Notes under the pieces: generated by a model
Told to the model about the DNA's origin: nothing
What the model saw: only the letters and a program-made list of their open reading frames with translations
Database searches by the model: none
Assembly (NCBI GenBank): GCA_964478755.1
Contig: CAYZJP010000007.1
Location: forward strand, 1,117-65,116
Source of the DNA: an uncultured Klebsiella sp.
GTDB lineage: Bacteria; Verrucomicrobiota; Verrucomicrobiia; Limisphaerales; SXTU01
Length of the DNA stretch: 64,000 nucleotides
Direction of reading: 5' to 3'
Position numbers and translations under genes: made by a program
Shown here: positions 5,980 through 61,600 of the stretch, piece after piece
Numbering within the stretch: position 1 is the stretch's first letter
Layout of the letters: each line of letters begins with the position of its first letter

Positions 5980-6854
5980 AATCCGTCCTCCCCGTTCTGC
6001 TCCCGCTGCTCGCGGCGCTGGTCTATGTCCTGGGCGCGTTGCTCGCCAAGCGCTCGGCGGAATTCGGCGTCGGCGTGTGGCGCACGGCCTTTCTCTCAAA
6101 CCTCGTCTCCGCGCTGCTTTTCTCGCTGCTGCTGCCATTTGGAGGGACGTTTCATCTCAAGCTGCTTTGGCAGCCGGCCGTCGTCGCGGTGTTTTACCTG
6201 CTCGGACAGTTGCTGAATTTCTTCGCGCTCCAACGCGGCGACGTGTCCGTGGCCACGCCGGTGATGGGAGTGAAGATAATTCTCGTCGCGTTGTTCACCA
6301 CGCTGCTGCTCACGTCAGGCGTGTCGGCGAAACTCTGGTGCGCGGCGGCCTTGAGTTCGCTCGCCATCGCGCTGCCCAACCGCGCCGACGGCACGCCTCA
6401 CCATCACGTCGGCGCAACGATCCTCTACGCCGGCTGCTCGGCGACGATGTTTGCGCTGTTCGACGTGCTGGTGCAAAAGTGGTCGCCGGCCTGGGGCGCG
6501 GGCCGGTTCCTGCCGGTGATGCTCAGCTTCACCGCACTGTTCAGCCTGGTCCTCGTGCCGTCCTTCCATGCGCCGTTGCGCGAAATTCCCCGCACCGCGC
6601 GGCCGTGGCTGCTGGGCGGCTGCGTGTTCATCGGGTTGCAATCGCTGATCTTCGTCAGTGCCATCGCGTGGTTCGGCAATGCGACGACTGCGAACGTGAT
6701 CTACAGCTCGCGCGGGCTCTGGAGCGTCGTCGCCGTGTGGGGTGTGGGGCATTGGTTTGGCAACCGCGAGCGGCACCATGGCCCGGGCGTGCTGCGGTGG
6801 CGGCTGGCGGGCGCGTTGCTGATGATGGCGGCGATCGCGCTGGCGCTGATTTGA
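5976..6854 (+). CDS. DMT/EamA-like integral membrane transporter
   Basis: 292-aa ORF, very hydrophobic with about 10 predicted helices. ATGA start/stop overlap with the upstream gene at 5976-5979. Confidence 0.65.
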   Translation: MKSVLPVLLPLLAALVYVLGALLAKRSAEFGVGVWRTAFLSNLVSALLFSLLLPFGGTFHLKLLWQPAVVAVFYLLGQLLNFFALQRGDVSVATPVMGVKIILVALFTTLLLTSGVSAKLWCAAALSSLAIALPNRADGTPHHHVGATILYAGCSATMFALFDVLVQKWSPAWGAGRFLPVMLSFTALFSLVLVPSFHAPLREIPRTARPWLLGGCVFIGLQSLIFVSAIAWFGNATTANVIYSSRGLWSVVAVWGVGHWFGNRERHHGPGVLRWRLAGALLMMAAIALALI

Positions 6855-6908
6855 ACGCCGCACTTTGCGCTTCATCGAAAACCGCGTTCCCCTCACACTT
6901 CGCCCCGC

Positions 6909-8159
6909 ATGCTGACCCTCGAAAAATTCACCATCGGCGTGGGCGACCGCTTCGCCCACCAAGCCAAGGCCCAACTCCACGCATTCCAGCTCGCCGCCGC
7001 ACAGGGCGTCGAAGCCGTTCCCGTCTGGAACAAATCCAACCGCGAGCACACCTTCATCGGCTCGCATCCGCAGAGCGTGTTCGACGCCGCGCAGGCCGCG
7101 GTGAAATCGCTCGGCTGGAGCAAGGGCTGGCACGTGGACGCCGACCACATCCGCCTCGAAACGGTGGACAAGTTCATGGCCTGTTCGGATTTCTTCACCA
7201 TTGATGTCGCTGACAGCATCGGCCAGCCCGCGCCCGCCGCGGAGGTCGCCGCGTTCGTCGCGCGCCATCCCGAACTCACCGGCACCGTCAGCATCGCGGG
7301 CGTCAGCGCGCCGTTCACCACCACGCGCGCCGACGTGGAGCGCATCGCGGCAAAATATCTCCTCGCCGTGAAGGACGCCGGGAAAATCTACCGCCACATC
7401 GTCGCGCAAAAAGGCGAGGGCGACATCATCGCCGAAGTCTCGATGGACGAGACCGACGCGCCGCAGACGCCGCCGGAACTGCTCGTCATCCTCGTCGCGC
7501 TCGCGGACGAGAAGGTCCGCGCACAGACCATCGCGCCGAAGTTCACCGGACGCTTCAACAAGGGCGTGGATTACGTCGGCGACCTCGCACAGTTCGAGCG
7601 CGAGTTCAACGACGACCTCGCCGTCATCGCGCACGCCGTGAAGCAATACGGTTTGCCCAGGAACCTGAAACTCAGCGTCCACAGTGGCAGCGACAAGTTC
7701 AGCCTCTACCCGATCATCCGCCGCGCGCTCCAGCGCACCGGCGCAGGCGTTCACCTCAAGACCGCCGGCACGACGTGGCTCGAGGAACTCATCGGCCTCT
7801 CCGAAGCCGGTGGCGACGGCCTCGCGCTCACGAAGGAAATCTACGCCTACGCGCTCGCGCACGTGGACGAACTGTGCGCGCCCTACGCCAGCGTCATTGA
7901 CATCAAACGCGACAAGCTGCCCAGCGCCGACGCGGTCGCGAAATGGACCGGCGCGCAAATGGCGAACGCGCTGCGGCACATACCGAATCATCCCGAGTTC
8001 AACGCCAGCGTGCGCCAACTCCTGCACGTTTCGTTCAAGCTCGCGGCGAAGGCCGGCACGCGCTACACCGATTTGCTGAAAGCCAGCGAAGCCATCGTCG
8101 CGAAGAACGTGACGGAAAATCTCTTCGACCGGCATTTCAAGCCGCTGTTCATCGGTTAA
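6909..8159 (+). CDS. Tagaturonate/fructuronate epimerase (UxaE) family protein, probable
   Basis: 416-aa ORF. The N-terminus LEKFTIGVGDRFAHQAKAQL...PVWNKSNREHTFIGSHP...WHVDADHI matches my memory of the UxaE family. No search was run. Confidence 0.55.
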   Translation: MLTLEKFTIGVGDRFAHQAKAQLHAFQLAAAQGVEAVPVWNKSNREHTFIGSHPQSVFDAAQAAVKSLGWSKGWHVDADHIRLETVDKFMACSDFFTIDVADSIGQPAPAAEVAAFVARHPELTGTVSIAGVSAPFTTTRADVERIAAKYLLAVKDAGKIYRHIVAQKGEGDIIAEVSMDETDAPQTPPELLVILVALADEKVRAQTIAPKFTGRFNKGVDYVGDLAQFEREFNDDLAVIAHAVKQYGLPRNLKLSVHSGSDKFSLYPIIRRALQRTGAGVHLKTAGTTWLEELIGLSEAGGDGLALTKEIYAYALAHVDELCAPYASVIDIKRDKLPSADAVAKWTGAQMANALRHIPNHPEFNASVRQLLHVSFKLAAKAGTRYTDLLKASEAIVAKNVTENLFDRHFKPLFIG

Positions 8160-14630: not shown

Positions 14631-17600
14631 ATGAATCTGCGACGCCTGACTCTCCTGTTGTTCACTCTTTGCGTTGCTGGTGCATCCGCCGCGCCGGTTT
14701 CGCTCTTCGATGGCAAGACTTTGGTCGGATGGGAAGGCGACACCAACAAGGTTTGGCGGGTGCGCGACGGGACAATTGTCGGCGGTTCGTTGGAGGGAAA
14801 TCCGCGCAATGAATTCCTCGCCACGCTGAAGAGCTACAAAAACTTTCACCTGCGGCTCGAATACAAACTGGTCGGCACGTCGGGCTTCGTGAACAGCGGC
14901 GTGCAGTTCCGCAGCAAACGCATCGCGACGCCGCCGAATGAAATGTCCGGCTTCCAGGCGGACATCGGCGCGGGCTTCTCGGGCTGTCTCTACGACGAGT
15001 CGCGCCGCCGCAAAGTGCTCGCGCAGGCGGACACGAACTTCGTCGCGCGCATCGAGAAGATCGGCGATTGGAACACTTACGAGATCGTCGCGAGCGGGCC
15101 GCAGATTCTGCTTTTCCTCAACGGCCAGCGCACGGCGATCTGGGTCGAACGCGAGGCGGGCATTGACGAAACCGGCGTCATCGCGCTGCAAATCCACGGC
15201 AACTGCAAGGCCGAGGTGGCGTTCCGCAACCTCAGCATTGAAGTGCTGCCGGACTCGGCGGTGCCGGGCGAGGCGGAAGTGCTCAGTCGCTTCGGCAGCG
15301 CGCAGCCGGGCGCGCCAGTCGGGGCGTTCAGCGAGGGGAAGTTCGCGCTGGGGACGAATGAGGTCGTCGTGTTCGTGGGTCAGGAAAATTTCGTCCGCGA
15401 TGCGAAGGCGGGCGAAATCGAAGCGCTGCTGGCGAAAGAGTTCTCGGCCAGGAATCCGCGCTTCCGCTCGATGGCGTGGGAGGCGGACACGGTTTACGAG
15501 CAGTGGCGTGACCTGAATTTCGGTTCGTGGAAAGCGCAGCTCGAAACGGCGGGCGCGACCGTCATCATCACGCAGTTCGGCCAGATGGAGGCGCTGGATG
15601 GCGTCGCGCGATTGCCCGAGTTCACTGCCGCGTATCACCGGCTCCTCGATCAATTCGCCGCCCGCACGCGCAAGGTCGTGCTGGTTTCGCCGATGCCGTT
15701 CGAGAAACCGCTCGCGTCGCACGCGCCGGACTTGACCAAGCGAAACAGTGACGTTGCGGCTTATGCGAACGCGGTGCGGGCGATCGCGAAGCAGCGGGGC
15801 GCGGTCTTCGTGGACGTTTTCGCGCCAGTCACAAAGCGTGGTTCCGGCGCAACACGGCTCACGGAGGACGGGATCCATTTGACCGAGTCCGGCTTGGGTG
15901 AGGTTGCCGCCATCACGGCGCGGCAGCTTGGCGTGGAGCCGAAGTTATCCGCCGAACTGGATCCGCTCCGCGCCGCCATCGTGCAGAAGAACCAACTGTG
16001 GTTCGACGCGTGGCGCCCCGCGAACTGGTCGTTCGTCTATGGCGACCGCGTGAACCAGATGTTCGGCAAGGCCGGCGGCACCGAGCCGTCGCTCAAAGGC
16101 GCGTTCGAGCGGCACCGTCCGCTGGTGGACGCGGCGGACGTGGAGATTCACGTGCTCGCGCGCGGCGGAGCGCCGGTTTCCAAACCGGCACAGTCCGTGC
16201 CGCCGATCAAGTCTCGTGCCGATTTGGAAATCGGCGCTCCGGTCCTTTCTCCCGAGGAAGAGCTGGCCACCTTCACCGTCGCGGACGGTTACGAAATCAA
16301 CTTGTTCGCCTCCGAGCGCGACGGCGTGGTGAAGCCAACGCAAATTGCGTGGGACGAGAAAGGCCGCCTGCTCGTCGCGTGCTCACCGACGTATCCGCAG
16401 ACGCAGGCCAGCGCGAAACGCGCGGACTACATTCAAGTGCTCGAAGACACGCGCGGCGCGGGCCAGGCCGACAAGTCGTGGCGCTTCGCCGAGGGCCTCC
16501 CGATGGTGCAGGGCCCCGACCCCGGCGCGGGCGGCGTGTATGTCTGCGACTTTGATCAGCTCGTTCACCTGCGCGACACCGATGGCGACGGCAAAGCCGA
16601 TGTGCGTCGCGTCCTCTTTAGCGGCTTCGGCATCGGCGACACGCACCAACTCATCAACAGCATTTGCCACGGGTCAGACGGCAGCCTGTGGTTCTCGCAA
16701 GGCTTGCACGCGTTCTCGCGCGTCGAGTCGCCGTGGGGCATCGCGCGCCTTGATCGCGCGGCGGTGTGGCGTTTGAATCCGCGCACGCTGCGTCTCGAAG
16801 GCTTCTTCGGCGGCGGCATGGCGGGCGCGAATTGCTGGGGCATTGCCTTCGATGACTTCAACCAGGTTTTCCACAAGTCCGGCGACCGTCCGCACGGCTA
16901 CTGGACCGTGCCCGGCATGGTGCGCGGCGCGAGTCCCAGCGGCAGCAGCTCGGCGACTTCGGCGGACACGGCGTATCGCAATTCGCCCGAGCAATATCAT
17001 TCCGTCGGACCGCTGTTCGACACGTCGCCGAAGACGACGGCGATTGAATTCATCGGCACGCGCGCGTTGCCGGATGACATTCAGGGCTGCGCGTTGATCG
17101 GCGGCTACTTCGGCGCGGTGGTGGAACTGCATCGCTTGCAGGACGACGGCTCGGGCTTCAAGAGCACACAGTTGCCGAAACTGGTGAAGTCGTCGAACGC
17201 CGCGTTCCGCCCCGTGGACGTGAGCGTTGGCCCGGACGGCGCGATGTATCTCGCGGACTGGTTCAATCCCATCATCGGCCACTATCAAGCGAGCTACGCC
17301 GACCCGCGCCGCGACAAGGCGCACGGCCGCATCTGGCGCATCAGCGCGAAGGGCCGCGCGCCGGTGAAGCAGCCGAATCTCGCTGCGATGAAGCCCGCCG
17401 AACTGCTCGAACAACTGCGTTCACCCGAACGCTGGACGCGTTATCAGGCGAAACGGCTGCTCTTTGATTTGCCCGCGAACGACGTTTTGAAAGCTGCGGA
17501 TGAATTCGTCGCGAAGATTTCTGGCACGACGCTCGACGAGGAAAAGTTGTTGCTCGAAGTCATCGGTGTTTTTGAGGCGCATCAATCGCCGCGTCCCGCG

Positions 17601-29586: not shown

Positions 29587-30036
29587 ATGAAACGGCGGAC
29601 GAAATACGAAACAAAGACCAGCGAGCCGATGGTCCTCAACGACGCTCTGGCACTTCCGCCCGAGCCGCCGGCCATGGTGCGCACGCAGATTTATCTGAAC
29701 CGAGTGGAATACGACTTCGTGCAGGCACAGGCGACTCAGCGTGGTGAGCCGATGGCCGCAGTCATCCGGGCGTTCATTGACGAGAAGATGCAACTTCCCG
29801 CCGATGCGTGGACCAACAACCCGATGCTGCGACCCACGCCCGTTGACCCGGATTGGAGTGCTCCTTCTGACGCAGCCATCAACCACGATCATTACCTCTC
29901 GGGCTGTCCCAAGAAGTGGGTCAAAGTGAAGGGCAAGTGGGTCGAAGCCCCGCCGCTGCCGGATGACTACTACACGAATGACGCCAGCTACCGGGCTTAC
30001 AACCGGAAGTTGCAGAAACTGGAAGCCGCCGGATGA
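29587..30036 (+). CDS. vapB: RHH/CopG-like antitoxin with a long C-terminal extension (VapB-like)
   Basis: 149-aa ORF. MVRTQIYLNRVEYDFVQAQATQRGEPMAAVIRAFIDE resembles a ribbon-helix-helix. ATGA overlap with the PIN toxin gene at 30033-30036. Confidence 0.6.
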   Translation: MKRRTKYETKTSEPMVLNDALALPPEPPAMVRTQIYLNRVEYDFVQAQATQRGEPMAAVIRAFIDEKMQLPADAWTNNPMLRPTPVDPDWSAPSDAAINHDHYLSGCPKKWVKVKGKWVEAPPLPDDYYTNDASYRAYNRKLQKLEAAG

Positions 30037-30440
30037 GCGGTCGCATTTTTTTGGACGCCTCGTTTTGGATCGCCTACCGGGACGAACGGCAGGAACACCA
30101 CCTCCAAGCGAAGGACATTCTCCCGCGCGTTTTTCGGGAGCACCAGGCATTCGTCACCACTCTGCCCGTGGTCTGCGAAATCCACGCCTATTTCTCACGT
30201 TCCCGCGTGAAGAAGCGGGTTGTGCTGGACGACCTGTTCAGCAACCCCGTCGTGCATATCGCCGAGGTGTCCGCCAAGGATCAAAACCACGCGTTGGAAC
30301 TGCTCCGCGCGCATCTGGACAAGAATTACTCCCTCTGCGACGCGCTTTCATTCGTCGTGATGCGCCGCCTGAAATTGGAGCGCGCATTGGCCTTCGACGA
30401 GCACTTCCGGCAATTCGGCGAGTTTCAAATCATCGGTTGA
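30033..30440 (+). CDS. vapC: PIN-domain ribonuclease toxin VapC
   Basis: 135-aa ORF with acidic PIN residues in context: IFLDASFWI, VVCEIHAY, LCDALSFVVM. Confidence 0.8.
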   Translation: MSGRIFLDASFWIAYRDERQEHHLQAKDILPRVFREHQAFVTTLPVVCEIHAYFSRSRVKKRVVLDDLFSNPVVHIAEVSAKDQNHALELLRAHLDKNYSLCDALSFVVMRRLKLERALAFDEHFRQFGEFQIIG

Positions 30441-30446
30441 ATTTTC

Positions 30447-33400
30447 ATGAGCGAAATCCCCAAAGCCTACGAACCGCAGTCCGTCGAGGATCGATGGTAT
30501 GACTTCTGGGTGAAGCAGGGCTGCTTCACCGCCGATCCTGCGCGCGTGGGCGACAAGCGCCCGGCGTATTCCATCGTCATCCCGCCGCCGAATGTTACCG
30601 GCATGCTCCACATGGGGCACGTCCTCAACAACACCATCCAGGACATCCTCAGCCGCAAGGCGCGCATGGACGGCAAGGAAGTCCTCTGGCTCCCCGGCAC
30701 GGACCACGCGGGCATCGCCACCGAGGGCATGGTGACGAAGCAAATCCGCAAGGAGGAGAAGAAGTCCAAGCAGGACATCGGCCGCGAAGAGTTCATCAAG
30801 CGCGTGTGGACGTGGAAGGAAAAGCACGGCGGCATCATCATCCAGCAGCTCAAGAAACTCGGCTGCTCGTGCGACTGGACCCGCGAACGCTTCACGATGG
30901 ACCCCGACTACGTGCGCAACGTGCAGCGCGTGTTCGTGGACCTTTACAAAAAAGGGCTGATTTACCGCGGCAAGCGCATGGTGAACTGGTGTCCCGCCAC
31001 GCAGACCGCGCTCTCCGACGAGGAAGTGGAAATGAAACCGCAGAAAGGTTTCATGTATCACTTCAAGGTCGAGGTGGCCGAGCCGGGGAGCGTGGGCGGC
31101 CCGCCTGCTGATTCCGGCGGCTCGCCGGAATCCTCGTCCATCCATCTAAAATCAGAAGAACGAGTGTCAGGCGGGCAGCCCGACACGGCACGCGAGCCGC
31201 GTGCGCTCCCCGGACCGGATGGAAAAATCTGGCTCACCATCGCCACCACGCGCCCCGAGACCATCCCCGGCGACACCGCAGTGGCCGTGAACCCGAAAGA
31301 CCCGCGTTACGCGCACCTCATCGGCAAGCACATCGTGCGGCCGTTGCCGGCGGAATTGCTGCGCGAACAGAAGCTCATCCCGATCATCGGCGACGAGCAT
31401 GTGGATTTCGAGTTCGGCACCGGCGTGCTCAAGGTGACGCCCGCGCACGACAAGGCGGACTTTGAGATCGGCCAGCGCCACAAGCTGCCGCTTGTGGACA
31501 TCATGAATCCCGACGGCACGATGAACGCGCTGGCGGGTGAAAGTCTTGCGGGCTTGGACCGTTTCGAGGCGCGTGCGGTGGCGGTGGAGCGGTTGAAGGA
31601 ACTGGGTGTGCTCGTGGAGGAAAAGCCTTACGAGAACAACGTGGGCTTTAGTCAACGCGCCGACGTGCCCATCGAACCGCGCCTGAGCGAGCAATGGTTC
31701 CTCAAGTATCCGAGTGTGGAAGTCAGCAAGGCGTGCGTGGAACAGGAGGACGCGGAGCGGAGCGCCGATCTCCGAATCGGCGCGTTGGATGACGCTGCTG
31801 AAACACGCCGAATCGGAGTTCGGCGCTCCAAGATGAGTTTCCATCCGCAGCGGTGGGCGAAGGTTTATGACCACTGGCTGGTGAACATTCAGGACTGGTG
31901 CATCAGCCGTCAGCTTTGGTGGGGCCATCGAATTCCGGTGTGGCGTCGTCGTTACTCCAAACAAGAAATCAGAGACGATCCGAAGCTGGGACATTTGATG
32001 CGCGCCGTTGACGATGTCTCTTCTAAAATGGATGCGATCCGCAAAAAATTTGGAGCGCAACTTGGAACAGATAAAAAAAATGATGCACGCCGTTTGATTC
32101 AAGACACATTGTCTGAAAGCAAAGACGCAATTTATTGGTGGCACAATCTTTCGGAAGACGAAAATTGGGTTGAAATTGAAGCAGTAACTTATTCTGAAGT
32201 CGCAGCAAAGTATCTTGAAGGTCGCGGCTTCACCCAAGACCCCGACGTGCTCGACACATGGTGCAGTTCCTGGCTCTGGCCGTTCGCCACGATGGGCTGG
32301 CCGGAGCAGACCGAGACGCTGAAGAAGTTCTACCCGACCACCGACCTCGTCACCGGGCCGGACATCATCTTCTTCTGGGTCGCCCGCATGATCATGGCGG
32401 GCTACGAATACATGGGCGACCTGCCGTTCAAGAATGTCTATTTCACCGGCATCATCCGCGACAAGCAGGGCCGCAAGATGTCCAAGACGCTCGGCAACTC
32501 CCCCGACCCGCTCGAACTCATCGCCAAATACGGCGCGGATGCGCTGCGTTTCGGCACGATGCGCAGTGCGCCGCTCGGTCAGGACGTGCTCTTCGACGAG
32601 AAGGACGTGGAGCTGGGCCGCAACTTCTGCAACAAGCTCTGGAACGCCTGTAGGTTCCGACAAATGGTCGGAACAGTTGAAAGTGGAAAGGTGAAAGCTG
32701 AAAGCCAGGCCGCGGACTCCGCCGTCCCTTCAACTTTCAACCTTCAACCTTCAACTCCTTTCGAAGTGCAGGGCGAGATCAACGCCGCGCTGCTCTCCAG
32801 CGACGACCGTTGGATTCTCCTCCGGCTCGACCAGGCCATCCGCGAGGTGACCGACGCATTGGCCACCTACAACTTCGCCACCGCCGTGCAGGCGCTCTAC
32901 CGCTTCTTCTGGAGCGAGTATTGCGACTGGTATGTCGAGGCGAGCAAGGCGGCGTTCTTCGGCGAGGACGCAAAGCTCAAAGCGAACAAAGTCGCCGTCA
33001 TTGACTTCGCGCTCTCGCACCTGCTGCGGATGTTCCACCCGCTGCTGCCGTTCATCACGGAGGAGCTGTGGCACGGGATGGGTTACTCGGCGGACATGCC
33101 GGAGAATCAGGGCGGCCAGACCATCATGTTCGCGCCTTGGCCCAAGCCGCTTTCTGACGCGGAGAAAGAAACGTGGGGTCTCGATGACACCGTGGAGACG
33201 TTCGCGAACGCGAAGTTCGAGCTGGTGACGCAGGGCCGCAATTTGAAGACACAGTTCAACATCGGCGCGGGCAGGAAGGGCAAGTTCATCCTAAAGCCTG
33301 TCGGCCAGCTCGACGCCAACGAGGCCGAAGTGCTGCGCCTGCTGCTCAGTGCCGAGTCATTGGAACTTAATCCCGACTACGTGCCAAAGAAGGGCACGCC

Positions 33401-33653
33401 CACCGCGCTCTCCCGGCTCGGTGAACTTTACCTGCCGCTGGATGGACTCATTGACGTCGCCGCCGAGCAGTCGCGGCTCGGGAAGGAGCTGGAGAAAATC
33501 CGGGCCGAGATCGCGAAGGTGGAGCAGAAGCTCGCCAATCCGAGCTTCGCGCAGAAGGTTCCGCCTGCGGTCCTCGACGAACACAAGCAGCGGCTCGCCG
33601 ACTGGCAGTCGAAACTGGCGCAGACGAAGGCGGCGATTGAAGCGCTGGGCTAA
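30447..33653 (+). CDS. valS: Valine--tRNA ligase
   Basis: 1068-aa ORF: PPPNVTGMLHMGHVLNNTIQD (HIGH-type), WCISRQLWWGHRIPVW, DVLDTWCSSWLWPF, KMSKTLGNSP and a C-terminal coiled coil. About 120-190 aa longer than typical ValS because of four insertions (see findings). Confidence 0.95.
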   Translation: MSEIPKAYEPQSVEDRWYDFWVKQGCFTADPARVGDKRPAYSIVIPPPNVTGMLHMGHVLNNTIQDILSRKARMDGKEVLWLPGTDHAGIATEGMVTKQIRKEEKKSKQDIGREEFIKRVWTWKEKHGGIIIQQLKKLGCSCDWTRERFTMDPDYVRNVQRVFVDLYKKGLIYRGKRMVNWCPATQTALSDEEVEMKPQKGFMYHFKVEVAEPGSVGGPPADSGGSPESSSIHLKSEERVSGGQPDTAREPRALPGPDGKIWLTIATTRPETIPGDTAVAVNPKDPRYAHLIGKHIVRPLPAELLREQKLIPIIGDEHVDFEFGTGVLKVTPAHDKADFEIGQRHKLPLVDIMNPDGTMNALAGESLAGLDRFEARAVAVERLKELGVLVEEKPYENNVGFSQRADVPIEPRLSEQWFLKYPSVEVSKACVEQEDAERSADLRIGALDDAAETRRIGVRRSKMSFHPQRWAKVYDHWLVNIQDWCISRQLWWGHRIPVWRRRYSKQEIRDDPKLGHLMRAVDDVSSKMDAIRKKFGAQLGTDKKNDARRLIQDTLSESKDAIYWWHNLSEDENWVEIEAVTYSEVAAKYLEGRGFTQDPDVLDTWCSSWLWPFATMGWPEQTETLKKFYPTTDLVTGPDIIFFWVARMIMAGYEYMGDLPFKNVYFTGIIRDKQGRKMSKTLGNSPDPLELIAKYGADALRFGTMRSAPLGQDVLFDEKDVELGRNFCNKLWNACRFRQMVGTVESGKVKAESQAADSAVPSTFNLQPSTPFEVQGEINAALLSSDDRWILLRLDQAIREVTDALATYNFATAVQALYRFFWSEYCDWYVEASKAAFFGEDAKLKANKVAVIDFALSHLLRMFHPLLPFITEELWHGMGYSADMPENQGGQTIMFAPWPKPLSDAEKETWGLDDTVETFANAKFELVTQGRNLKTQFNIGAGRKGKFILKPVGQLDANEAEVLRLLLSAESLELNPDYVPKKGTPTALSRLGELYLPLDGLIDVAAEQSRLGKELEKIRAEIAKVEQKLANPSFAQKVPPAVLDEHKQRLADWQSKLAQTKAAIEALG
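31085..31211. repeat. PAL-1 element in-frame in valS
   Basis: GGGGAGCGTGGGCGGCCCGCC..GATTCCGGCGGCTCGCCGGAATC ... GGCACGCGAGCCGCGTGCGCTCCCC. Encodes GSVGGPPADSGGSPES...TAREPRALPG, in the same element frame as the pfaC copies. Confidence 0.8.
31759..31829. repeat. PAL-2 element in-frame in valS
   Basis: GGAGCGCCGATCTCCGAATCGGCG ... CGCCGAATCGGAGTTCGGCGCTCC. Encodes ...ERSADLRIGALDDAAETRRIGVRRSK... Confidence 0.8.
32676..32755. repeat. PAL-4: GTTGAAAG/CTTTCAAC-type inverted repeat in-frame in valS
   Basis: GTTGAAAGTGGAAAGGTGAAAGCTGAAAG ... CTTCAACTTTCAACCTTCAACCTTCAAC. Encodes VESGKVKAESQAADSAVPSTFNLQPSTP. This is the only copy in the window. Confidence 0.55.
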
Positions 33654-47767: not shown

Positions 47768-50700
47768 TCATTCGCTCACGCCGCGCACGGTGAAGTTCTT
47801 CATCCCGTAAATCACGCGGCCATCCACCGAGAGAAAACCGTCCACCGTCAGCAACAGGTTCTCATCGTCCCACGCCGTGATGACCGCCTCGACCGTCACG
47901 AGCGAGTCGCGCGGAATCACCTGCCCGCGATACGTCCACTCGTGCTTCGCGTCCATCGCGACGGCTTCCCAGCGCAGGCTCGCAGCGTGGCCCCAGCGTT
48001 TCACGGCGCAGAATTTCAGCAGTTGCAAAAACGACTCCAGACCGAGCGAGCCGGGCACGACGGGGTCTTGATAGAAGTGCGCCTGGAAAAACCACTCGTC
48101 CGCCACGACGCGCTTCGTGCCGCGAATGAAGCCGAGCTGCTTCGGCCCGCCGTCCGGCACCCACGCGGTGATGTCGTCCACCATGCGCAGCATCGCGTCC
48201 GCAAACGGCACTTGTGTTGGATACGGCAGCGACTTCGCGCGCGCCAGTTCCGCCGCGCTCGGCTCGTAAAGTTTCACGCCCTTGATGCCTTCCTGTTTTT
48301 CCAACGCTGCCTTCGGGAAGAAACCAAAGTAGGTGTCGCCGCGATAAATTTTCTGCGCGCCCGCGCTGACCTCGAAATCGAACCACTGGATAATCATCCC
48401 CGCCGAGCTGGAGAGGCGCGTGTTCTTGATGCGCGTGGTGAGCGTGCCCACGCCGGGCCGCACGGGCGCGAACTGCGTGCCAGTGCCGCCGAGGTTGCGG
48501 TAGGAAAGGTCGTCGCTGCTCGTGAGCGCGGAGCCGATGTAGGCCGAGAGCCAGCCGCAGGGCTGCAACGCGATTTCGAGCAGCACGGCGAACGGCATAT
48601 CGCCTTGGCGGTTCGCGGCGAAATACCATTCGCCTGGCGGCACGTCGTATTCCGCCGTGACCTCGCCGCCCGCGACCATCTTGAACGCCTCGCAGCCGCG
48701 AATCTCCGTAATGCGGTCGAGGAATTGATATGGCGCGCGCGGCAGCCGCGCGATGCGACGCGGCGAGTCGGAGTCGAAAATGCGGTAAGGCGCGCCGAAA
48801 GCATCGGATGGATTGCCGCTGGAAAAGGCGGTGATGCGCTCGGGGCCGTAGAGCGCAAACTTCGGAGCGCCGGGCTCCGAACCGGCGTGTCCTACTCCAC
48901 TCGTTACTGCCTGCCGGTTTGGAAACCGGCGCTCCGCCGCATTCCACATCGCCCGCAATTCCTCCCGCGTCACGCCCGTGTAGCGCAGGCTCATGTTGCC
49001 GATTTCGACAATCGCCTTGCCGTCGGCATACATCAGCGCGTCGGCGATGACATACGGCTCCGGCCCGTAGCCGATTTCTTTAATTTCGATTTCGTAAGTG
49101 ACAACCTTCGTCGTCTCCAAAACTTGCCCGCGACACTTGAGCTGACCAACAACGCCGGGCACGGGCTCGAGCGCGACGCCTTCGCGTGCTTCCGCCACCC
49201 AGCCGAGCCGCAGCAGATGCACGCGCAACGTGTGCAGGCAGCACTCATACATCAGCGTGCCCGGCATCACGCGGTCGTCCACGAAATGGCAGGTGAGAAA
49301 CCAGTCGCTCGGATGAATGTCCGCTTCGCCGCGAATCAGCCCGAGACCGAACCGCCCGCCATTCGGCTCAAGTTTTTCAATGCGATGCACGAGGCGCATT
49401 TTTCCGCCGGGCAGCGTCACGGGTTTCGCTAGCTTCAGCGCGGCGAACTTCTCTCCAAAACATTTTGCCAAGTCGCCTTCGCGCAATGCGTCGAGTTGCG
49501 CCGCCGAATACGACTCCACCGCCATCGGCACGAAGTCTTCCCAATCCGCCGGGCGTTTGCCGGGCGTTGGCTTGAGTTGCAGCGCGGTGCGCACGACGCC
49601 TTTGCCCGCCGCCAAATCCTGCGGCGTGAAAAAGCCCGCGCAGCCCTCGGTCATCGTGAGCAGCGGCTGGCCGCCAACGGTGGACTCGAAGTTGAACTTG
49701 AAGAGCCACACGCCGCTCTGCTGGAAAAACCGCTCGATGCGGATGTCATAACGAATCACTTCACCCGGCCCAGGCAGACTGCGATGAAAGCAAACCTTCG
49801 CGTCGAGCAGCCGATACATCGCCAGCCCGCGCGTCTGGAAATCAATGCCGAGAAAACCGGAGAGAAACAAATCCGCCTGACCCGCCTCAACCGCGATGCA
49901 CGTCGGAATGCGCCCGCAATCGAGATACCACGCGCCCGGATGAACATCGTGCTCCGTCACGACTCGCCCGTGTGTCATCGAGCGCGGCTCGCCCTCGATG
50001 GCCGTAATGCGGTCCACCAGTTGCAACGGCGTATCGGGCAGCCGCACGCGCGTCGGGAAGGAATCCACTTCAGCGAAGAGCGAGCCGAGCGCGTTGCCAA
50101 TTTTTCCAATCGCAAATTCAAAACACTGCTCGCGCGTGAGCGAGCGCGGAACAGTCGTCGGAGGAGCGCACGCCGCTGGCGTGCCGTCTTCAGCGGCCCG
50201 CTGAAAACGTCGTTCCTCTAACTCTCCTCCACGCGCCTCGAAGAAAGGTGGCATGACGATGGAATTGGGCGGGCCGCCCAATTCCGCACGCGGGCCGCGT
50301 GCGCTCCCCGCCCCATTCGCCGCCCGCGCCACCAAATCCAACTGCGTCTGCACCGCCTCGGACAGCGACTTGAACACGCCTTGCGAGAACGCCAAGTAAG
50401 CCTCGTGCGCCTGCAACGTCGTCGCCTGCGCCTGCGCCATCGCCGTGAGCAATTCGGCTTCAAAAGGATCCTCTGCAACTTCAGTTCTCGCCGGCACAAG
50501 CTGCGGCTCCGCCCCTCTGCTGGGTGGAACGGGCCACTGGCCCGTCCCGTCGGGCGACTCGCCCGACGGAATTTCGGCGCGTGTCCCTGCTACAATCGTG
50601 CTCCCTTCAGTCCGAGAGTGCGCCGTCGCTCCGCGCAGCGGGTCGCTGCGCGGAACAGGCGAGTCGCCTGTTCCACCCGAACCAGACTTCGGCCGCTCCG

Positions 50701-53700
50701 GCACCACGATGCGCGCACCCGTAATGGGGATGACCACCTGCTTCCCTTCCGGTTCCGGCGCGGCTTCTTCTTCGCGCACGCCATACAGCGGCTCCAAGTT
50801 CACCGGCAAACCTTCGGCCCACAGCGCGCCGAGCACTCGCAGCACGTCCAGCAGCGGCTCCTTCGCCGACAGGCACAGCGAACGGGCGAAGTGCGGCTGC
50901 CCTTCCAAAATCTGTCCAATCATCCGCGAGCACGACGCACCCGGCCCCATCTCGATGAAGAACCGCACGCCATCCGCATACGCGGCTTGCACGACGCGCG
51001 GAAAATCAATCGTGGCGCTGGCCTGCGCGACGATGGCATCCGCCGCCGTCTCACGGTCAGGCAAATAACTGCGGCCCCAGCCGCCGCTGTAGAACGTCAC
51101 GTCCGCCGGCGGCGTGGTCGTGAAGCGATGCAGCTCGCGATACGGCTCCAGCACCGGCTTGAGCAGTTCGCAATGCACCGTGCTCACGCCGTCGAGCGCG
51201 AAGAAGTGGCAGCCGAGTTTTGTTACAAGCGCATGCACCTGCTCCGCGTCGCCGCCGAGGACGCATTCGCGCGGCGTGTTGACGATGAGAATGTAAGTGC
51301 GCGCCAGCCCGGCCATCGCAGCGCGGACTTCCTCGGCGGGCCGGTCAACGAGGCCCGCAACCCAAGCGACAGACTGTTCAGCAGGCAGTTTCCACGCGCG
51401 CCGCAGCGCGGCAGATTCGCCGGTCAAATCCTTCGTGAACAACGTCGAGGCCGTGACGCGCGCGAGCATGTCATCACGTGCAGTCCATGCACGAAGTGCG
51501 AACAAACTCGTGCTCTCGCCGAGGCTGTAGCCGATGGCGGCATTGGGCTTCAAGCCGAGCGAAACCGCGATATCGCTGACGAACGCGCCGAGCGCGACCT
51601 GTCCGCAAATCGAAACGCGCTGGTCGGTGACGGGCACGGTGGCATTCCAGAATTGCGCGGCAAACATCTGGCTGGCGAGCCGGTCGTTCTCGCGATCTTG
51701 CGCGCGAAGAATTTCCGGGAACAGCAATCCCAGTTCGCGCCCCATGTCCGCGAAGTGATTGCCCGCGCCGGGAAAGACGAAGGCGACTTTGCCGCGAACG
51801 CGCTTCTCCGGCGGAGTGAAGAAAAGCCGATCACGGTCGCGGTGGTCGAGTGAAGGTAGGGCCGCGCTGCCGCGCGGCTGTTGGATGAGCAAAGCCGCGG
51901 CATCCAGCAACCGGGCAAATTGCGCGCGTTCTTCGGCGATGAAGGCGAGCGTGAGGAGCGCCGAGCATTGCTCGGCATTGGCGGCGGCTCTGGCCGAGCG
52001 ATGCTCGGCGCTCCAATGCCAGCGACGGGCCAGCGTGTCGAGCGGGGCGCTCGGCGCAGAGGCGGCAAGGCGGCGGAGTGAATCGAGTTGCGCGAGCAGT
52101 CCGGCGGCCTCGTCGGCCGCGAATGTGAAGAGGGCATCCCCCCGCTTGGCAGCAGCCGACGTGAGGAGGATCTGACTGACAGCCCTCTCATTAGCACCGG
52201 GCTTCAGCCCGGTGTGAATGCGCGCAAAGTCGCAAGCCGTTTCAACGGCTTCCCGCCCGCCCGAAACCGTTGAAACGGTTTCGGACTCTTCACTGTCCGG
52301 AGACACCCGGCTGAAGCCGGGTGCTAATGAAACAGGAGATGATGGGTCAAAAACTGGAGCTTCCTCCAACACCACACACACCGCATTGCCATCCACGCTG
52401 CTCGTCGTGACTGCGGCGCGGCGCGGGCCGTCGGCGCGGTCGCGAACCCACGGTTGCGGCGCGGCACCGCGCGCGTGACGCGGCAGCACTTCGCCGTGCA
52501 ATGCGAGCGCGGCTTTCGCGAGATTCACAAGACCCGATGCCGCGCCGGTGTGGCCGACTTCGTTTGCCGCGCTGGCGATTAAAACGGAGTTATCAAAACC
52601 AGCCTCAGCACAAGCGCGCGCGGTGGCGAGTTGCGCTGCGGAGCGCGGCCTTGAGGCCGCAGAAACCTCCGAAGTTTTGTTTCGCTCGGACGGGATCTGG
52701 ATCGCCTCGTCCTTCGCGCGCTTCTGCGGCGTGAACGCCGCGCTCCCAACACCGATACCGCGAATCACGGCGTAGATGCGGTCGTTGTCGCGCTGCGCGT
52801 CGTCGAGACGTTTCAGCACAATTGCCACGGCGCCTTCGCCGGGAATTTCATTCGCACCGAGCGCGGCTTCGGCGAGGCGAGCGCGGAGGTCGCCGGTGAG
52901 TTCCACGCCGCCGGAGAGTGCGAGATCGAGTTCGCCCTGTTGCAGCGCGCGCACGGCGATTTCGAGCGCGCTCAGGCCGCTCGTGTCCTCGCTGCACACG
53001 GTGTAGCTCTGGCCGCCGATGCGGAATTCCTTCGCGATGCGGCTGGCGTTCGTGCCGGCGAGCGCGCCCATCGTGCGGTCGGCGTTGAGCGGCGGGCCAA
53101 CGGAATCCGCGGCAGCCTGTCCATCGCGCAGCATCGCCCAGCGCAGATGAAAATCCGTCGTGCGCAAATCCAACCCGAGGCCGATGAAGACGCCCGTCCG
53201 CGCGGGGTTGGGGCCGTTCACACGCGCGTCGGCGAGCGCGTCGCGCGCGACTTCGAGCATCAACGCTTGCTGGGGCAGCAACTCGCCGAGTTCGCGCGGC
53301 GGAATGCGGTAGCGGTTGACGGGTATGGCGAGGTCGTCAACGAAATAACCGGCGAGCTGGGGAGCGCACGCCGCTGGCGTGCCGTCTTCAGCGGCCCGCT
53401 GAAAACTTTGTTCGACTGATTTGTCTTCCTTCGCCGAGGAAGAAGATGGAGTGACGGGCGAATTGGGCGAGCCGCCCAATCCGGCACGCGGGACGCGTGC
53501 GCTCCCCGTCGAGCCGCAGGACGAGCGGAGCAATTCAGTGTTCAGGCCGCGCCAGTCGAAGCGGGCTTGCGGCTGTGTCTCGGTGTCCGCACCGAGCACG
53601 CGGGCGGCGAAGGAACGGAGATTTTTCCACGGACCGATGTGCGCCGCGAGGCCGACGATGGCGATGGGAAATGGGGGATGGGGAATAGCGTCTGGCGTCT

Positions 53701-58600: not shown

Positions 58601-61600
58601 AAGAGCCGCCCGCGCAGAGGAAGTTCACCACGTCCTGTAAAGTCTGCAACGTGCCGAGGTGCTCGGGTTTCACCTCCGGCGCATCGGGCAGGCGCGCGCG
58701 CAACGCGGCCATGATCTCGACGCGCTTGATGGAATCAATGCCGAGGTCGCTGTCCAGGCCCATGCCGAGCGTGAGCATCTCGGCGGGGTAGCCGGTTTTT
58801 TCGGAAACAATTTCGAGAACAGACGTCGCAATGCGGGAAATGTCCGCAGTTTGTGGAACGCGCGACTCCGGCGGGCAGTTCCCATCGTCGTGCTGGGATC
58901 TCTGTTCGACCGGCTTTTCATTGCGAACGACGACTGAAGTCTGAGCGGCAAATGAATCGGGCGCGACGCCCGATTCAGCACGCGAGACGCGCGCGCTCCC
59001 CAACGCTTCACGCTGCATCGGAGCCGATGAAACGGGCGCAGGAGCGATTCTCTGCACAGCGTCCGGCGCGGCGGCGGGCGCGAGCGGCGGCAGGCCGAGC
59101 AATTCGCGGCGCTGGCCCAGCAGCGATTCGAGCGAGCGGCGGGCGGCCTCCTGGTTTGCGAGAAATTGCTGGTGCAACTGCGCGGTCTGCTCCTGCAGCT
59201 TTTGCAGAGCGAGCATTCCCTGCTGCGCCGTTTGCAGCGCGGCGGCAACGTCACCGGAAAGCGGCGCGGCAGGCGAAGCAGCGCGTTGCTCCGGTGAAGT
59301 GTTGCTGTTCGCATTGACCATTTCGCGGCGCGGCAGCGGCGGACGTTCCGGCGGGCGCGTCATGCGGACGTTCGCGCCGGAGACGGGCACAGTGAACGCG
59401 GGCTTCGCGTTCTTTACCGGCGCGGCGGGCGGGACAGTTTCCCACTTCGTCAAATCCACCGCGTGACCGAGCGCGGCAACGCGGCAGAGCGCGATGGCGA
59501 GATCGAACGTGCCGTTGCGCGTGCCGCGCGAGGCGTCGAGCGCGATGGCATCCACGTCGCGGCCCGGCAGAATCGCCTGCACGAGGTCGCACAGCACGTG
59601 GCCGGGGCCGAGTTCGAGGAAGGTCGTAACGCCGTCCGCGTGCATCGTCTCCATTTGCTTGATGAAGTCCACGGGGCGCACCATCTGGCTGGCCAGCAGG
59701 TCGCGCGCGGGCTTCGCGCCCGGCGGGTATTCCCTGGCCGTCGAGTTCGCATAGACAGGGATGCGGCCCTTGGTGAAAGGAATTTCCTCCAGCACGGCGG
59801 CGAACGGCTCGCGCGCGTCGGCGACGAGCGAACTGTGAAACGCGGCGGCAACCGGCAGCACGCGGGCGCGGATGGAGCGCTTCGCGGCCTCGCCGGCGGC
59901 GTATTCGATCTGAAGCTTCGGCCCGGCGAGCACGAACTGCGTGGGGGAATTGCGGTTGGCGATGACGAGCTGCGAATCGTTCAGGCGCGCGAGTTCGGCG
60001 ACGGTTTTTTCCTCCGCCTGCACGGCGAGCATGGAGCCGCGGTCGCTGTGGCCGTTGCGGTTCGCCATCAGCCGGCCGCGCACGTTCGAGAGCAGGTGCA
60101 GCGACTCGCGCTTCAACCGGCCCGCGCCGTAGAGCGCGGCGAGTTCACCGTAGCTGTGGCCGGAAGTCGCTTCGATCGTGATGCCGAAGGATTCCGCAAG
60201 GCTCAACGCGGCGACGCTCACCGCGCCGAGCGCGGGCTGCGCGACGTCGGTGGCCTTCAATGCTTCTTCCTGCGCGTGACGGGCTTCGTCGTTGAAGGCG
60301 GGATGCGGGTAGATGAAGTCGCTGAGGCGTGGCTGCGCCGCCTCGGCGCAGCGGGGTGCGGGCGACGCCGCGTCGCCCGTTCGTGCAGCGGGGCGCTGCG
60401 CCCACGCGGACTGCGACGAGGGCGTCGCAGCCACGGCGAAAGCAGCGTCAGCGTCGGCCAGCGCGTCGAGCACTTCGGGGAACTGGCACGCGAGGTCGCG
60501 GAACATCCCGACGTATTGCGAGCCTTGACCGGGGAAAAGCGCGCCCAGTTTGCCGCGCCGCTCGCCGGAGCCGAAGCAGACGCCGGTGGGCAAGGCCCAG
60601 GAAGTTTTGTCGGGATGTTTGTCGAGCATCGCGAGCGCAGCATCGCGGAGCGGGGCGAGAGAGAATTGTTCGGAAGCCACCCCCTCACCCCGGCCCTCTC
60701 CCCCGGCGGGGGCGAGGGAGGAGGAGGCGGTGGGTTTTGACGACGATTCTTTTGAAAGCGGAAGCAACAGGCGGAACTTCGCTTCGATGCGGAAGGACTG
60801 GCGCGAGGCGTGGGCGCGGCGGCGAAGGTCAGGCCAGGGAAGTTCAGTAGGCAGCGCGGCGAGTTGCGCGCGGAGGTCGGAAAGTTTTTCGGCGCAGAGC
60901 GCAAGGATTTCCACGTCGCCGTTCCAATCGGGTGCTTGGCGCGCGCCGCCGTGTTCTTCGAGGACGCAGTGAAAATTCGTGCCGCCAAATCCAAAGGCGC
61001 TCACGCCAGCGCGGCGTGGATGATTCGCGCGCGGCAGCCACGGGCGCTTCGTCGTGTTCACGTAGAACGGCGAGCCGGGCGCGGCGTCATCGAGCGGCTG
61101 GGAAACTTTGATGGTGGGCGGCAGGACTTTTCGTTCGAGTGCGAGCGCGGCCTTGATGAGTCCGGCGACGCCGGCGGCGGCCTTCGTGTGGCCGATCTGC
61201 GACTTCACCGAACCGAGCGCGGCCCAAGCGCCATCTGACTTCGCGGCGGAAAAAACTTTCGTGAGCGAACGCAGCTCCGTGGCGTCGCCGACTTTGGTGC
61301 CGGTGCCGTGGGCTTCGATGAGTTCAACCGTGTCAGCGGTGACATCCGCGTTGGTGTAGGCGCGTTCGATGGCCTGGATTTGGCCTTCGGAGCGCGGCTC
61401 GTAAATCGCGCCGCCGCGTCCGTCGCTCGACGAGCCGATGCCCTTGAGCACGCAGTAAATTTTGTCACCGTCGCGCTCGGCGTCGGTGAGGCGCTTGAGC
61501 ACGACCATGCCGAGTCCTTCGCCGAGGATGGTGCCGTCGCAATTTTTGTCGAAGGGCTTCGCGTCCCCCGTCGGCGAGAGCGCCGGGGTTTTGCTGAAGC

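Follow-up and report, generated by a model that had tools for sequence, protein, structure and literature searches.

The valS gene and its palindromic inserts

The window analyzed here is the whole 64,000-nt stretch of contig CAYZJP010000007.1 (positions 1,117 to 65,116; GenBank assembly GCA_964478755.1), from the genome of a soil-type Verrucomicrobium, hereafter G000 (5.26 Mb in 270 contigs, 93.9% complete, GC 63.8%). It carries valS, the gene for valine–tRNA ligase, whose reading frame runs through three palindromic elements, PAL-1, PAL-2 and PAL-4. An earlier note, made from the letters alone, had reported these three inserts and described the protein as longer than usual; inverted repeats that fold better than shuffled sequences do lie there. 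The features of the locus are as follows:

30447..33653, plus strand: valS, valine–tRNA ligase, 1068 aa (open reading frame (ORF); NF004349 and 1gax matches; sole full-length match in the assembly)
31078..31218 (core 31085-31211), plus strand: PAL-1, nested palindromic element of the GGGGAGCGC...GCGCTCCCC family (inverted repeat, fold z, nhmmer)
31759..31829, plus strand: PAL-2, inverted doublet, similar to a REP doublet forming a hairpin (REPIN), of a GGAG-headed repetitive extragenic palindrome (REP) hairpin (GGAGCGCCGATCTCCGAATCGGCGC) (inverted repeat, fold z, repeat family)
31947..32231, plus strand: low-GC, non-palindromic hypervariable segment, residues about 501-595 (GC, fold z, genome search)
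32675..32756, plus strand: PAL-4, hairpin of GTTGAAA-like and TTTCAAC-like heptamer runs (inverted repeat, fold z, copy in relative G019)

The gene product belongs to the class Ia valine–tRNA ligases, as it matches the family over its full length and above the curated cut-off: NCBIfam model NF004349 scored 1067.6 bits (cut-off 704) and TIGR00422 917.8 bits (cut-off 612.1), and the 862-aa valyl-tRNA synthetase (ValRS) of Thermus thermophilus (1gax) matched at E 1.5e-188. Both catalytic motifs are present, HMGH at residues 55-58 and KMSK at 677-680, which we take to be the HIGH-type (HxGH) and KMSKS-type motifs, and no variation is seen at G57, H58, K677, M678, S679 and K680 in an alignment of 27 rows. 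Moreover, the frame is open from end to end, without a stop. These features support the prediction that valS is a functional gene with no sign of decay, and they agree with the opinion of the earlier note that it is not a pseudogene. As to its length, the NF004349 model (860 positions) covers residues 6-1063, so that the protein exceeds the model by about 200 residues, and against a baseline of insert-free relatives (882-900 aa) the excess is about 170-190 aa. The palindromes supply 46 + 27 + 29 = 102 aa of this excess, and the low-GC segment most of the remainder. A second valS, for which the earlier note had recommended a search, was not found in the genome's own assembly (93.9% complete, 270 contigs), where there is only one full-length match. 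Six other matches, at E 1.1e-14 or weaker and with 28-38% identity over short stretches, are what would be expected from other class I synthetases, and valS is apparently single-copy in G000.

PAL-1 has arms of 52 nt (31078-31129 and 31167-31218) that are 73% complementary, with its core, GGGGAGCG...CGCTCCCC, at 31085-31211. The arms of PAL-2 (31759-31786 and 31802-31829) and of PAL-4 (32675-32702 and 32729-32756) are both 28 nt long, being 89% and 82% complementary, respectively. All three elements are in frame: PAL-1 is read as residues about 214-260, PAL-2 is translated as RSADLRIGALDDAAETRRIGVRRS and PAL-4 as VESGKVKAESQ...STFNLQPST. Single-stranded DNA folds were compared with 200 dinucleotide shuffles, giving z-scores of -7.69 for PAL-1 and -7.08 for PAL-2 (0 of 200 shuffles as good in either case) and of -3.10 for PAL-4 (1 of 200), against +0.68 for a 141-nt control taken from the low-GC segment (32000-32140; 147 of 200). 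Because the scores lie far below those of the shuffles and of the control, the palindromes are confirmed as real and beyond chance. Four of 21 listed sequencing runs were examined, two of DNA and two of RNA; contigs of the two DNA runs, which may share the window's source sample, cover PAL-1 (30900-31786) and PAL-4 (32621-32927). An Rfam scan returned only two sub-threshold matches, both to models of animal microRNA precursors (scores of 28.6 and 25.4 bits, with gathering thresholds of 79 and 88, respectively), which points to chance hairpin likeness. The triplex motif BoxC/TM_ECO was tried as well, in the form CCCTCNCCC ... GGGNGAGGG ... GGGNGAGGG (consensus from PMC4666352), and was rejected, as the CCCTCNCCC and GGGNGAGGG blocks occur nowhere in valS of G000.

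Placement of the inserts in the enzyme

Alignment to the Thermus ValRS, which had been suggested in the earlier note, placed each palindrome between aligned blocks. Five blocks were obtained (query 3-213 with Thermus 2-207, 261-421 with 208-363, 452-500 with 368-416, 596-738 with 447-589, and 786-1064 with 606-858), broken at valS residues 214-260, 422-451, 501-595 and 739-785. The inserts therefore fall exactly between the blocks, and no conserved block is lost. PAL-1 is inserted cleanly, with Thermus residues 207 and 208 on either side; PAL-2, within 422-451, substitutes for four residues (Thermus 364-367) after the editing domain; the gap at 501-595 is the low-GC segment; and PAL-4, within 739-785, separates the catalytic block from the C-terminal anticodon-binding part, in agreement with its proposed position near that region. 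In addition, two ValRS fragments of 146-147 residues (1wka and 1wk9), presumably the connective peptide 1 (CP1) editing domain, align from their residue 15 to query 259-395; if they are, PAL-1 lies near the start of that domain.

An AlphaFold2 model was built from a 27-row alignment, and it is poor overall (mean predicted local distance difference test (pLDDT) 61.1, predicted template modelling score 0.39). PAL-1 was modelled without secondary structure, with pLDDT of 47, 30, 26 and 30 over 10-residue blocks, between strands at 90 and 89, and PAL-4 likewise (45, 32 and 32) between helices at 76 and 90.

Empty, filled and differently filled alleles among relatives

The valS gene was present in all 41 genomes searched (G000 included), and none of the matches contained a stop. 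An alignment of 33 rows was made, namely G000 and 32 sequences from 30 relatives, in which insert-free alleles occur at every site, the shortest proteins being those of G028, G025, G020, G029, G032 and G033. At site 1, that of PAL-1, the empty relatives read GAAGCGCCGGGCAC joined directly to TGGCTC; site 2 (PAL-2) is empty in 17 of 32 rows and site 4 (PAL-4) in 18 of 31, and a fifth insert site, empty in G000, lies near residue 839. Sites 1, 2, 4 and 5 together hold 47 inserts of at least 30 nt in the 33 rows, three of them from G000. All 47 keep the frame and bring no stop, and 34 have a fold z below -3 (folded together with short flanks under RNA parameters and compared with 60 mononucleotide shuffles).

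The inserts of the relatives comprise at least seven other palindrome types, several of which bear the classical GTAG head: GTAGCAGC.., GTAGCGGCG.., GTAGTGGGAC.. and GGAGCGCCGAGC.. at site 1, GGTAGGGCGCG.. at site 2, and TATGAAGTAGG.. and GTACCTCGCC.. at site 4. Relative G019 carries PAL-2 and PAL-4 where G000 does and is without PAL-1, PAL-1-type elements occupy site 1 in G037 and G023, and G004 and G016 carry another heptamer hairpin at exactly the same junction as PAL-4. RNAalifold found no common compensated structure for the site-4 hairpins of G000, G019, G004 and G016 (10 pairs, -0.2 kcal/mol), so that descent of the two hairpin types from a single insertion cannot be claimed. The insert columns were removed before a ValS tree was built. 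In this tree all eight rows whose site 1 is filled group together (SH-like approximate likelihood ratio test 92); the group, which the empty G014 joins at a node of support 99, contains four palindrome types. This suggests either one old expansion of the loop followed by turnover of its content, or recombination.

A wider survey covered 80 Verrucomicrobiota valS loci, the nearest records being titled Verrucomicrobia, Pedosphaera sp. or Limisphaerales. At least 30 extra nt were present at site 1 in 21 of 78 loci (z below -3 in 11 of 19 folded), at site 2 in 30 of 78 (24 of 30), at site 4 in 27 of 79 (12 of 27) and at site 5 in 23 of 79 (10 of 23). Site 3, the low-GC region, which acted as an internal control, has at least 30 extra nt in 77 of the 80 loci, and only 1 of 53 folded has z below -3. 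Since this site varies in almost all loci yet is not palindromic, the low-GC segment is a phenomenon apart from the palindromes, as the earlier note had treated it, in line with its own z of +0.68. Its GC content is 0.38-0.47 compared with 0.638 for the genome, and no other copy of it was found in the G000 genome. The segment resembles an insertion domain that varies between lineages, and it may have been brought in by exchange from a relative of lower GC.

Some further observations were made on the valS genes of these collections. In G022 (L052) the ORF reaches 1326 aa; site 2 holds a 690-nt non-palindromic insert containing an internal duplication (...LYDHKAKK...), and another large insert is found at site 3. 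In the wider survey, site 1 is extended by about 950-980 nt in two of the 80 loci, a domain-sized insert; we assume these loci to be L147 and L149 (titled Prosthecobacter / Verrucomicrobiaceae), the longest valS matches at about 3.8 kb. The valS genes of G024 and G037, labelled as other families of the order, are nested in the clade of the window's genus, which possibly results from transfer, recombination or mis-binning. Finally, G001 has two full valS genes, of 962 and 963 aa, on contigs C89 and C125 (L037 and L038), which reflects either a true duplication or the presence of another strain in the bin, whose stated contamination is 3%.

Repeat families in the genome and their copies inside genes

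Each of the three palindromes has relatives elsewhere in G000. The PAL-1 family consists of nested palindromes of 122-152 bp with a head (GGGGAGCGC), a first hairpin (ACGCG-N3-CGCGTGC), a second hairpin (variable stem around GGCG-N3-CGCC), a core of about 40 nt and a mirror image ending in GCGCTCCCC. An nhmmer profile built from 12 copies found 21 loci, the valS copy at E 3.8e-22. The 24-nt ends GGGGAGCGCACGCGTCCCGCGTGC are present as inverted pairs, that is, as terminal inverted repeats like those of miniature inverted-repeat elements, and no direct target duplication was evident by eye at 12 copies, whose palindromic ends blur the exact borders; such absence would be expected of HUH elements. 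As a palindromic family of about 100-150 bp lying in frame in unrelated ORFs, PAL-1 is of the kind of the Rickettsia palindromic elements (RPEs).

The PAL-2 unit is a 26-nt hairpin, GGAGCGCCG-N-TC-N-CGGCGC, with an 8-bp stem, and 83 units (44 distinct) were found at 47 loci; a strict pattern matched 78 times, against 0 for the pattern read backwards. The stem shows covariation, 21 distinct units having G-C at pair 10-19 and 20 having A-T, and 87.8% of stem cells pair, compared with a maximum of 83.2% in 500 shuffles, with units that had been gathered by a palindromic query. Inverted units, about 70 bp end to end, occur at 30 of the 47 loci, the valS copy included, and 17 of the 47 are embedded in a separate, nearly identical miniature inverted-repeat transposable element (MITE) with 23-bp terminal repeats. 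PAL-2 is thus a short imperfect palindrome repeated many times, as REPs are, and consists of two inverted units, as REPINs do, but its copies are not confined to extragenic DNA. The MITE, about 140 bp long with terminal repeats GGGCGCATCTTGACACTGCCCCC, carries the PAL-2-type doublet as cargo (e.g., C45:18517-18588 and C8:9158-9229).

As for PAL-4, heptamer hairpins form 17 two-arm loci in G000, PAL-4 included. By eye, C4 holds a further two-arm relative of it, and C35 a one-arm relative that matches one PAL-4 arm at 94% over 34 nt.

The genic or intergenic position of the copies was then called with a codon-model classifier, which demanded a stop-free frame through the element, at least 50 codons on both sides, and a spanning frame that was the best of six in both flanks. 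It called genic 11 of 21 PAL-1 loci and 16 of 30 free PAL-2 loci, compared with 417 of 1000 random points, 1 of 17 MITE-embedded PAL-2 copies and 1 of 17 heptamer hairpins, namely the valS copy. Therefore, coding DNA shows no depletion of PAL-1 and free PAL-2, in contrast to MITE-embedded PAL-2 and heptamer hairpins, which are depleted there. Pfam domains were clear in all 21 host ORFs tested, and the hosts so supported include ThiC, aconitase, methionine synthase (MetH), a UvrA-family protein, AcrB and aldehyde dehydrogenase, together with two polyunsaturated fatty acid (PUFA)/polyketide megasynthases in the window, MmeI-type restriction enzymes and PSCyt/PSD1 proteins. One frame from the head (G-S-A/V-R-V-P-R-A-...) is used in 10 of 11 genic PAL-1 copies. 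Stop codons alone do not account for this preference: of 19 element orientations in genic loci, 3, 15 and 14 are free of stops in the first, second and third frame, respectively, and of 13 in non-genic loci 9, 6 and 12, counts from which no clear pattern emerges.

Besides those in valS, the following copies lie in the window:

16215..16240, strand unassigned: PAL-2-type REP unit with a degenerate partner beside it, in frame in a 1277-aa DUF7133/cytochrome c ORF (unit search, Pfam)
50162..50309, minus strand: PAL-1-family copy, in frame in a 2530-aa PUFA/polyketide synthase ORF (nhmmer E 1e-29, Pfam of host ORF)
53359..53507, minus strand: PAL-1-family copy in the same 2530-aa PUFA/polyketide synthase ORF (nhmmer E 1.1e-30)
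58854..59001, minus strand: PAL-1-family copy, in frame in a 2296-aa synthase ORF (nhmmer E 4.4e-13)

Just upstream of valS, at 29587-30440, are two small overlapping ORFs of 149 and 135 aa, the latter resembling a PIN-domain toxin by eye; the pair may be a toxin-antitoxin system.

A candidate mobilizer of PAL-2

Fourteen Pfam Y1_Tnp matches were obtained in G000, 10 of them over the cut-off, and the eight strongest genes are flanked by other hairpin types. One gene among the weaker matches is associated with the hairpins of PAL-2 type and resembles a REP-associated tyrosine transposase (RAYT):

Contig C60:28015-29064 (L078:1180-2229), minus strand: RAYT-like ORF, 349 aa (NF047646 match)

NF047646, the model for REP-associated tyrosine transposase, is matched by the C60 ORF at E 1.7e-20. 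Directly upstream of the likely start of this ORF lies an array of PAL-2-type hairpins, and three further units are in frame within the gene, between its HUH and tyrosine parts, so that in G000 the GGAGCGCC heads stand both upstream of the gene and inside it. Five loci of relatives were chosen by their matches to the C60 protein (67-85% identity); in four of them (G021, G034, G016 and G010) the gene has GGAGCGCC heads to either side, and none was seen in G037. A RAYT-like gene flanked by the same REPs is thus found, with a family match that stays under the cut-off. As this arrangement is that of the REPtron described for RAYTs, PAL-2 may well be mobilized in trans by the C60 enzyme, and the C60 gene is, by its arrangement and sequence, the likely mobilizer of PAL-2.

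The ORF next to it (L078:2233-2997, minus strand) looks like the C-terminal part of aconitase with a PAL-1-type insert (GSAPVSVAVDGVSPS...GGTPALPG). This insert was missed by the nhmmer profile, which indicates that the PAL-1 family is larger than 21 loci.

Other transposase genes of the genome show arrangements of their own. On contig C11, at about 4216-7200 (L097:820-3801, minus strand), a ClpB-type ORF (AAA, AAA_lid_9, AAA_2 and ClpB_D2-small domains) contains an in-frame Y1_Tnp domain (IS200/RAYT-like). This domain covers residues 535-612, separating the two ATPase modules, and has GGCGACGCCTCGTCGCC-type hairpins to either side; it seems that an entire REPtron is translated as part of this putative chaperone gene. 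At C131:712-1956 a Y1_Tnp gene stands between two copies of the 3' end (about 90 bp) of a NuoK-like gene, a long insertion-site duplication, and at C5:62601-64240 arrays of another hairpin (GCCCACAGACGGCGAYTWCAARTCGCCGGCAC) lie both around a RAYT-like ORF and, in frame, within it.

Translation, tolerance and proposed explanation

The alleles described above bear on whether the inserts are translated. If the inserts were not translated, two-thirds of them would be expected to disrupt the frame, and the preserved frame in 47 of 47 thus argues that they are read by the ribosome. Moreover, the ratio of non-synonymous to synonymous substitution rates (dN/dS) between G000 and G019 was 0.78 for PAL-2 and PAL-4 together (47 codons) and 0.14 for the flanking blocks (595 codons); between G000 and G037a it was 1.22 for the aligned part of PAL-1 (22 codons) and 0.066 for the flanking blocks (379 codons). 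These values suggest that the enzyme is under strong purifying selection, with the insert peptides almost free of it, a contrast that fits inserts which are translated and tolerated and that speaks against a role for the peptides. The earlier note had argued that these elements are translated and tolerated in their essential host gene, and the preserved frame, the almost neutral insert codons and the conserved flanks support its view; translation itself and harmlessness to the enzyme we infer from them.

The best explanation, which we hold with considerable confidence, is that the valS palindromes are mobile repeats of the REP/REPIN and RPE kinds which sit in permissive loops and are translated as functionless loops. 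According to this explanation, small non-autonomous mobile repeats would have landed in valS in frame, at loops or inter-domain linkers where added residues are harmless, and would be transcribed and translated as floppy loops devoid of function. PAL-2 would have spread on single-stranded DNA by means of the REP-associated tyrosine (HUH/Y1) transposase at C60, PAL-1 is a longer nested palindrome (about 120-150 bp) sharing the GGAGCGC head with PAL-2, and PAL-4 is a heptamer-built hairpin of less certain origin. We infer the mechanism of transposition from these arrangements.

Several results weigh against this explanation, or against parts of it. With regard to mobilization, no transposase was found beside PAL-1-type ends, none of the 14 Y1_Tnp matches lying on a contig with such ends, and the C60 ORF scored 73.4 bits, below the NF047646 curated cut-off of 80; the REP units lying in frame probably explain this lowered score. 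Among the 10 genomes with at least 20 PAL-2 pattern matches, four have a transposase match of at least 60% identity and two have none at E <= 1e-10, and 5 of 16 pattern-free genomes have a weaker transposase match, all of these being comparisons among incomplete metagenome-assembled genomes (MAGs). With regard to the repeats, all PAL-2 units have the head GGAG(CGC), one base apart from the canonical GTAG, and among the 16 other counted two-arm heptamer loci only C181 has the arm order of PAL-4, the 15 others having the opposite order and being non-genic. As to translation and tolerance, the insert dN/dS values are soft, coming from few codons and from alignments that are possibly not orthologous, and the two RNA runs cover only conserved stretches of relatives (at least 88% likeness), so that the organism is not shown to be present in them. 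Furthermore, the structure model is weak: Rossmann-fold parts and the entire region 412-496 around PAL-2 also have low pLDDT, and low confidence is therefore not specific to PAL-2. The incompleteness of the assembly bears on the single-copy claim.

In RNA run X16, contigs over 32675-32816 reached summed depths of 844 and 441, compared with 30 and 17 in the other RNA run; this depth over the PAL-4 region could come from a relative's transcript or from unrelated heptamer hairpins.

GC-rich palindromic 'byp' elements are bypassed in some yeast mitochondria, and the valS palindromes, all three able to form stable hairpins, might similarly be removed from the mRNA or skipped by the ribosome. We regard such non-translation as highly improbable, since the reading frame stays open and in register through all 47 inserts of the 33 valS rows, and Rfam gave nothing beyond the chance matches. 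Joints skipping 31082-31229 do occur in the RNA runs, but they carry the letters of the empty site and one was also present in DNA run X2, which indicates that they come from insert-free relatives and not from splicing. There is a similarly slim chance that valS is decaying or dispensable, its work being done by a clean second copy in the unassembled part or in a co-binned strain. The assembly gaps would leave room for such a copy, and G001 has two valS genes on separate contigs; nevertheless, none was found in the assembly, the flanks have dN/dS of 0.07-0.14, the catalytic motifs are intact, and many relatives have comparable inserts in their single detected valS. That the palindromes are artefacts of assembly can practically be dismissed: short-read contigs often break at palindromes, and a contig of run X1 does end inside PAL-2 at 31786, but contigs of two DNA runs cover PAL-1 and PAL-4, and the same elements stand at the same sites in independent genomes (PAL-2 and PAL-4 in G019, PAL-1 type in G037 and G023).

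The inserts could instead be adaptive, either by giving ValRS a new surface or partner, or as mRNA hairpins that slow the ribosome for domain-wise folding. Their location at the borders of aligned domain blocks, the repeated refilling of the same loops in different lineages and the persistence of palindromy while codons change would all be in agreement with a function. However, close relatives lack the inserts, the peptides are wholly different between lineages and have dN/dS near 1, the same families occur in unrelated genes and between genes, and recurrence at a few loops would also be produced by purifying selection against all other positions, so that we consider adaptation quite improbable. 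It is unlikely, too, that PAL-4 at least arose in place, by heptamer slippage and template switching (fold-back copying) that kept its arms alike. Its arms are runs of near-identical heptamers, few copies have its arm order (one counted, two more by eye), the upstream host codons (GTTCCGAC) pair by eye with the first inserted bases (GTCGGAAC), and G004 and G016 carry another heptamer hairpin at the same junction; on the other hand, near-identical arms exist elsewhere (C35, and similar ones at C181 and C4), and descent with compensation is not shown by the RNAalifold result. Insertion of mobile repeats into tolerant loops thus remains our preferred explanation.

Relation to known repeats and significance

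Inserts of this kind have been described before. A literature search combining Verrucomicrobia with intragenic repetitive extragenic palindromes returned only the work of Di Nocera, De Gregorio and Rocco (2013, BMC Genomics 14:522, PMC3733652). These authors report GTAG/CGTC-tagged REPs inside known genes, with the top intragenic GTAG count in the verrucomicrobium Opitutus terrae, and most REPs being intergenic; inverted dimers encode 20-30 aa, and some sub-families have alternative complementary stems. They also report double inserts in both uvrA genes of O. terrae, tRNA synthetase genes hit in three other species, RAYT genes flanked by their own REPs and degenerate tags, including GTGG in O. 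terrae, and they argue that the insertions are probably neutral, being in flexible loops. The elements found here are alike in being short tagged hairpins, often inverted dimers, in uvrA and tRNA synthetase genes. They differ in the head, here GGAG(CGC), in that about half of the copies are genic, and in that valS holds three elements of three families at loops which other families fill in relatives.

REPINs, i.e., two inverted REP hairpins with a short spacer, are described as extragenic by Bertels and Rainey (2011, PMC3116915) and in later work. PAL-2 is likewise such a unit, associated with a single RAYT-like gene flanked by the same hairpins, but it is often genic, its RAYT-like gene contains a REP pair of its own in frame and falls short of the NCBIfam cut-off, and its putative mobility is reflected here in presence or absence between relatives. 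Rickettsia RPEs (Ogata et al. 2000, 2002), as summarized in the MITE review PMC10969869 and in PMC3733652, are palindromic elements in frame in unrelated, partly essential genes. PAL-1 resembles them in its length of about 100-150 bp, its in-frame position in unrelated genes with one preferred frame, and its seeming compatibility with fold and function; it differs in residing in another phylum and in a free-living host, and the likeness is one of kind only. RPEs are not known to have a transposase, and none was found for PAL-1 either. Finally, Holder et al. (2015, PMC4666352) describe BoxC / PIT / TM_ECO as intrastrand-triplex repeats, GC-rich, interspersed and sometimes in palindromic pairs, TM_ECO being always intergenic in E. 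coli; the palindromes of G000 are GC-rich interspersed repeats as well, but the defining blocks are absent from its valS. By eye, the site-1 inserts of relatives G006 and G015 (LSPERGEGE...) look like the BoxC/TM_ECO motif.

Overall, the phenomenon is not a new principle, as it is already described for Opitutus and Rickettsia. Some value is added by more than 100 valS genes in which four or five recurrent loops offer matched alleles with and without inserts, by the lack of depletion from coding DNA, and by a RAYT-like gene with its own REPs in frame. One could go further and suppose that in Limisphaerales and Pedosphaera-like bacteria REP palindromes are not excluded from coding DNA, recolonize a few inter-domain loops of housekeeping enzymes, with turnover between families, and are a main engine of growth in protein length, part of their persistence perhaps being at the level of the nucleic acid (ribosome pausing, arm-to-arm template correction); we think it rather unlikely that this wider picture holds. 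The present results mean that three mobile hairpin repeats, amounting to about 100 extra residues, can be accommodated even by an aminoacyl-tRNA synthetase that is essential and single-copy. For annotation, long housekeeping proteins in Verrucomicrobia MAGs are to be taken as real genes and not as frameshifted junk, and odd low-complexity peptides (GSARVPRAESGV..., RSADLRIGAL...) as repeat-encoded. Moreover, the matched filled and empty alleles provide a natural map of the permissive sites of ValRS, and the valS loops a system for studying the entry of REPs and RAYTs into coding DNA.

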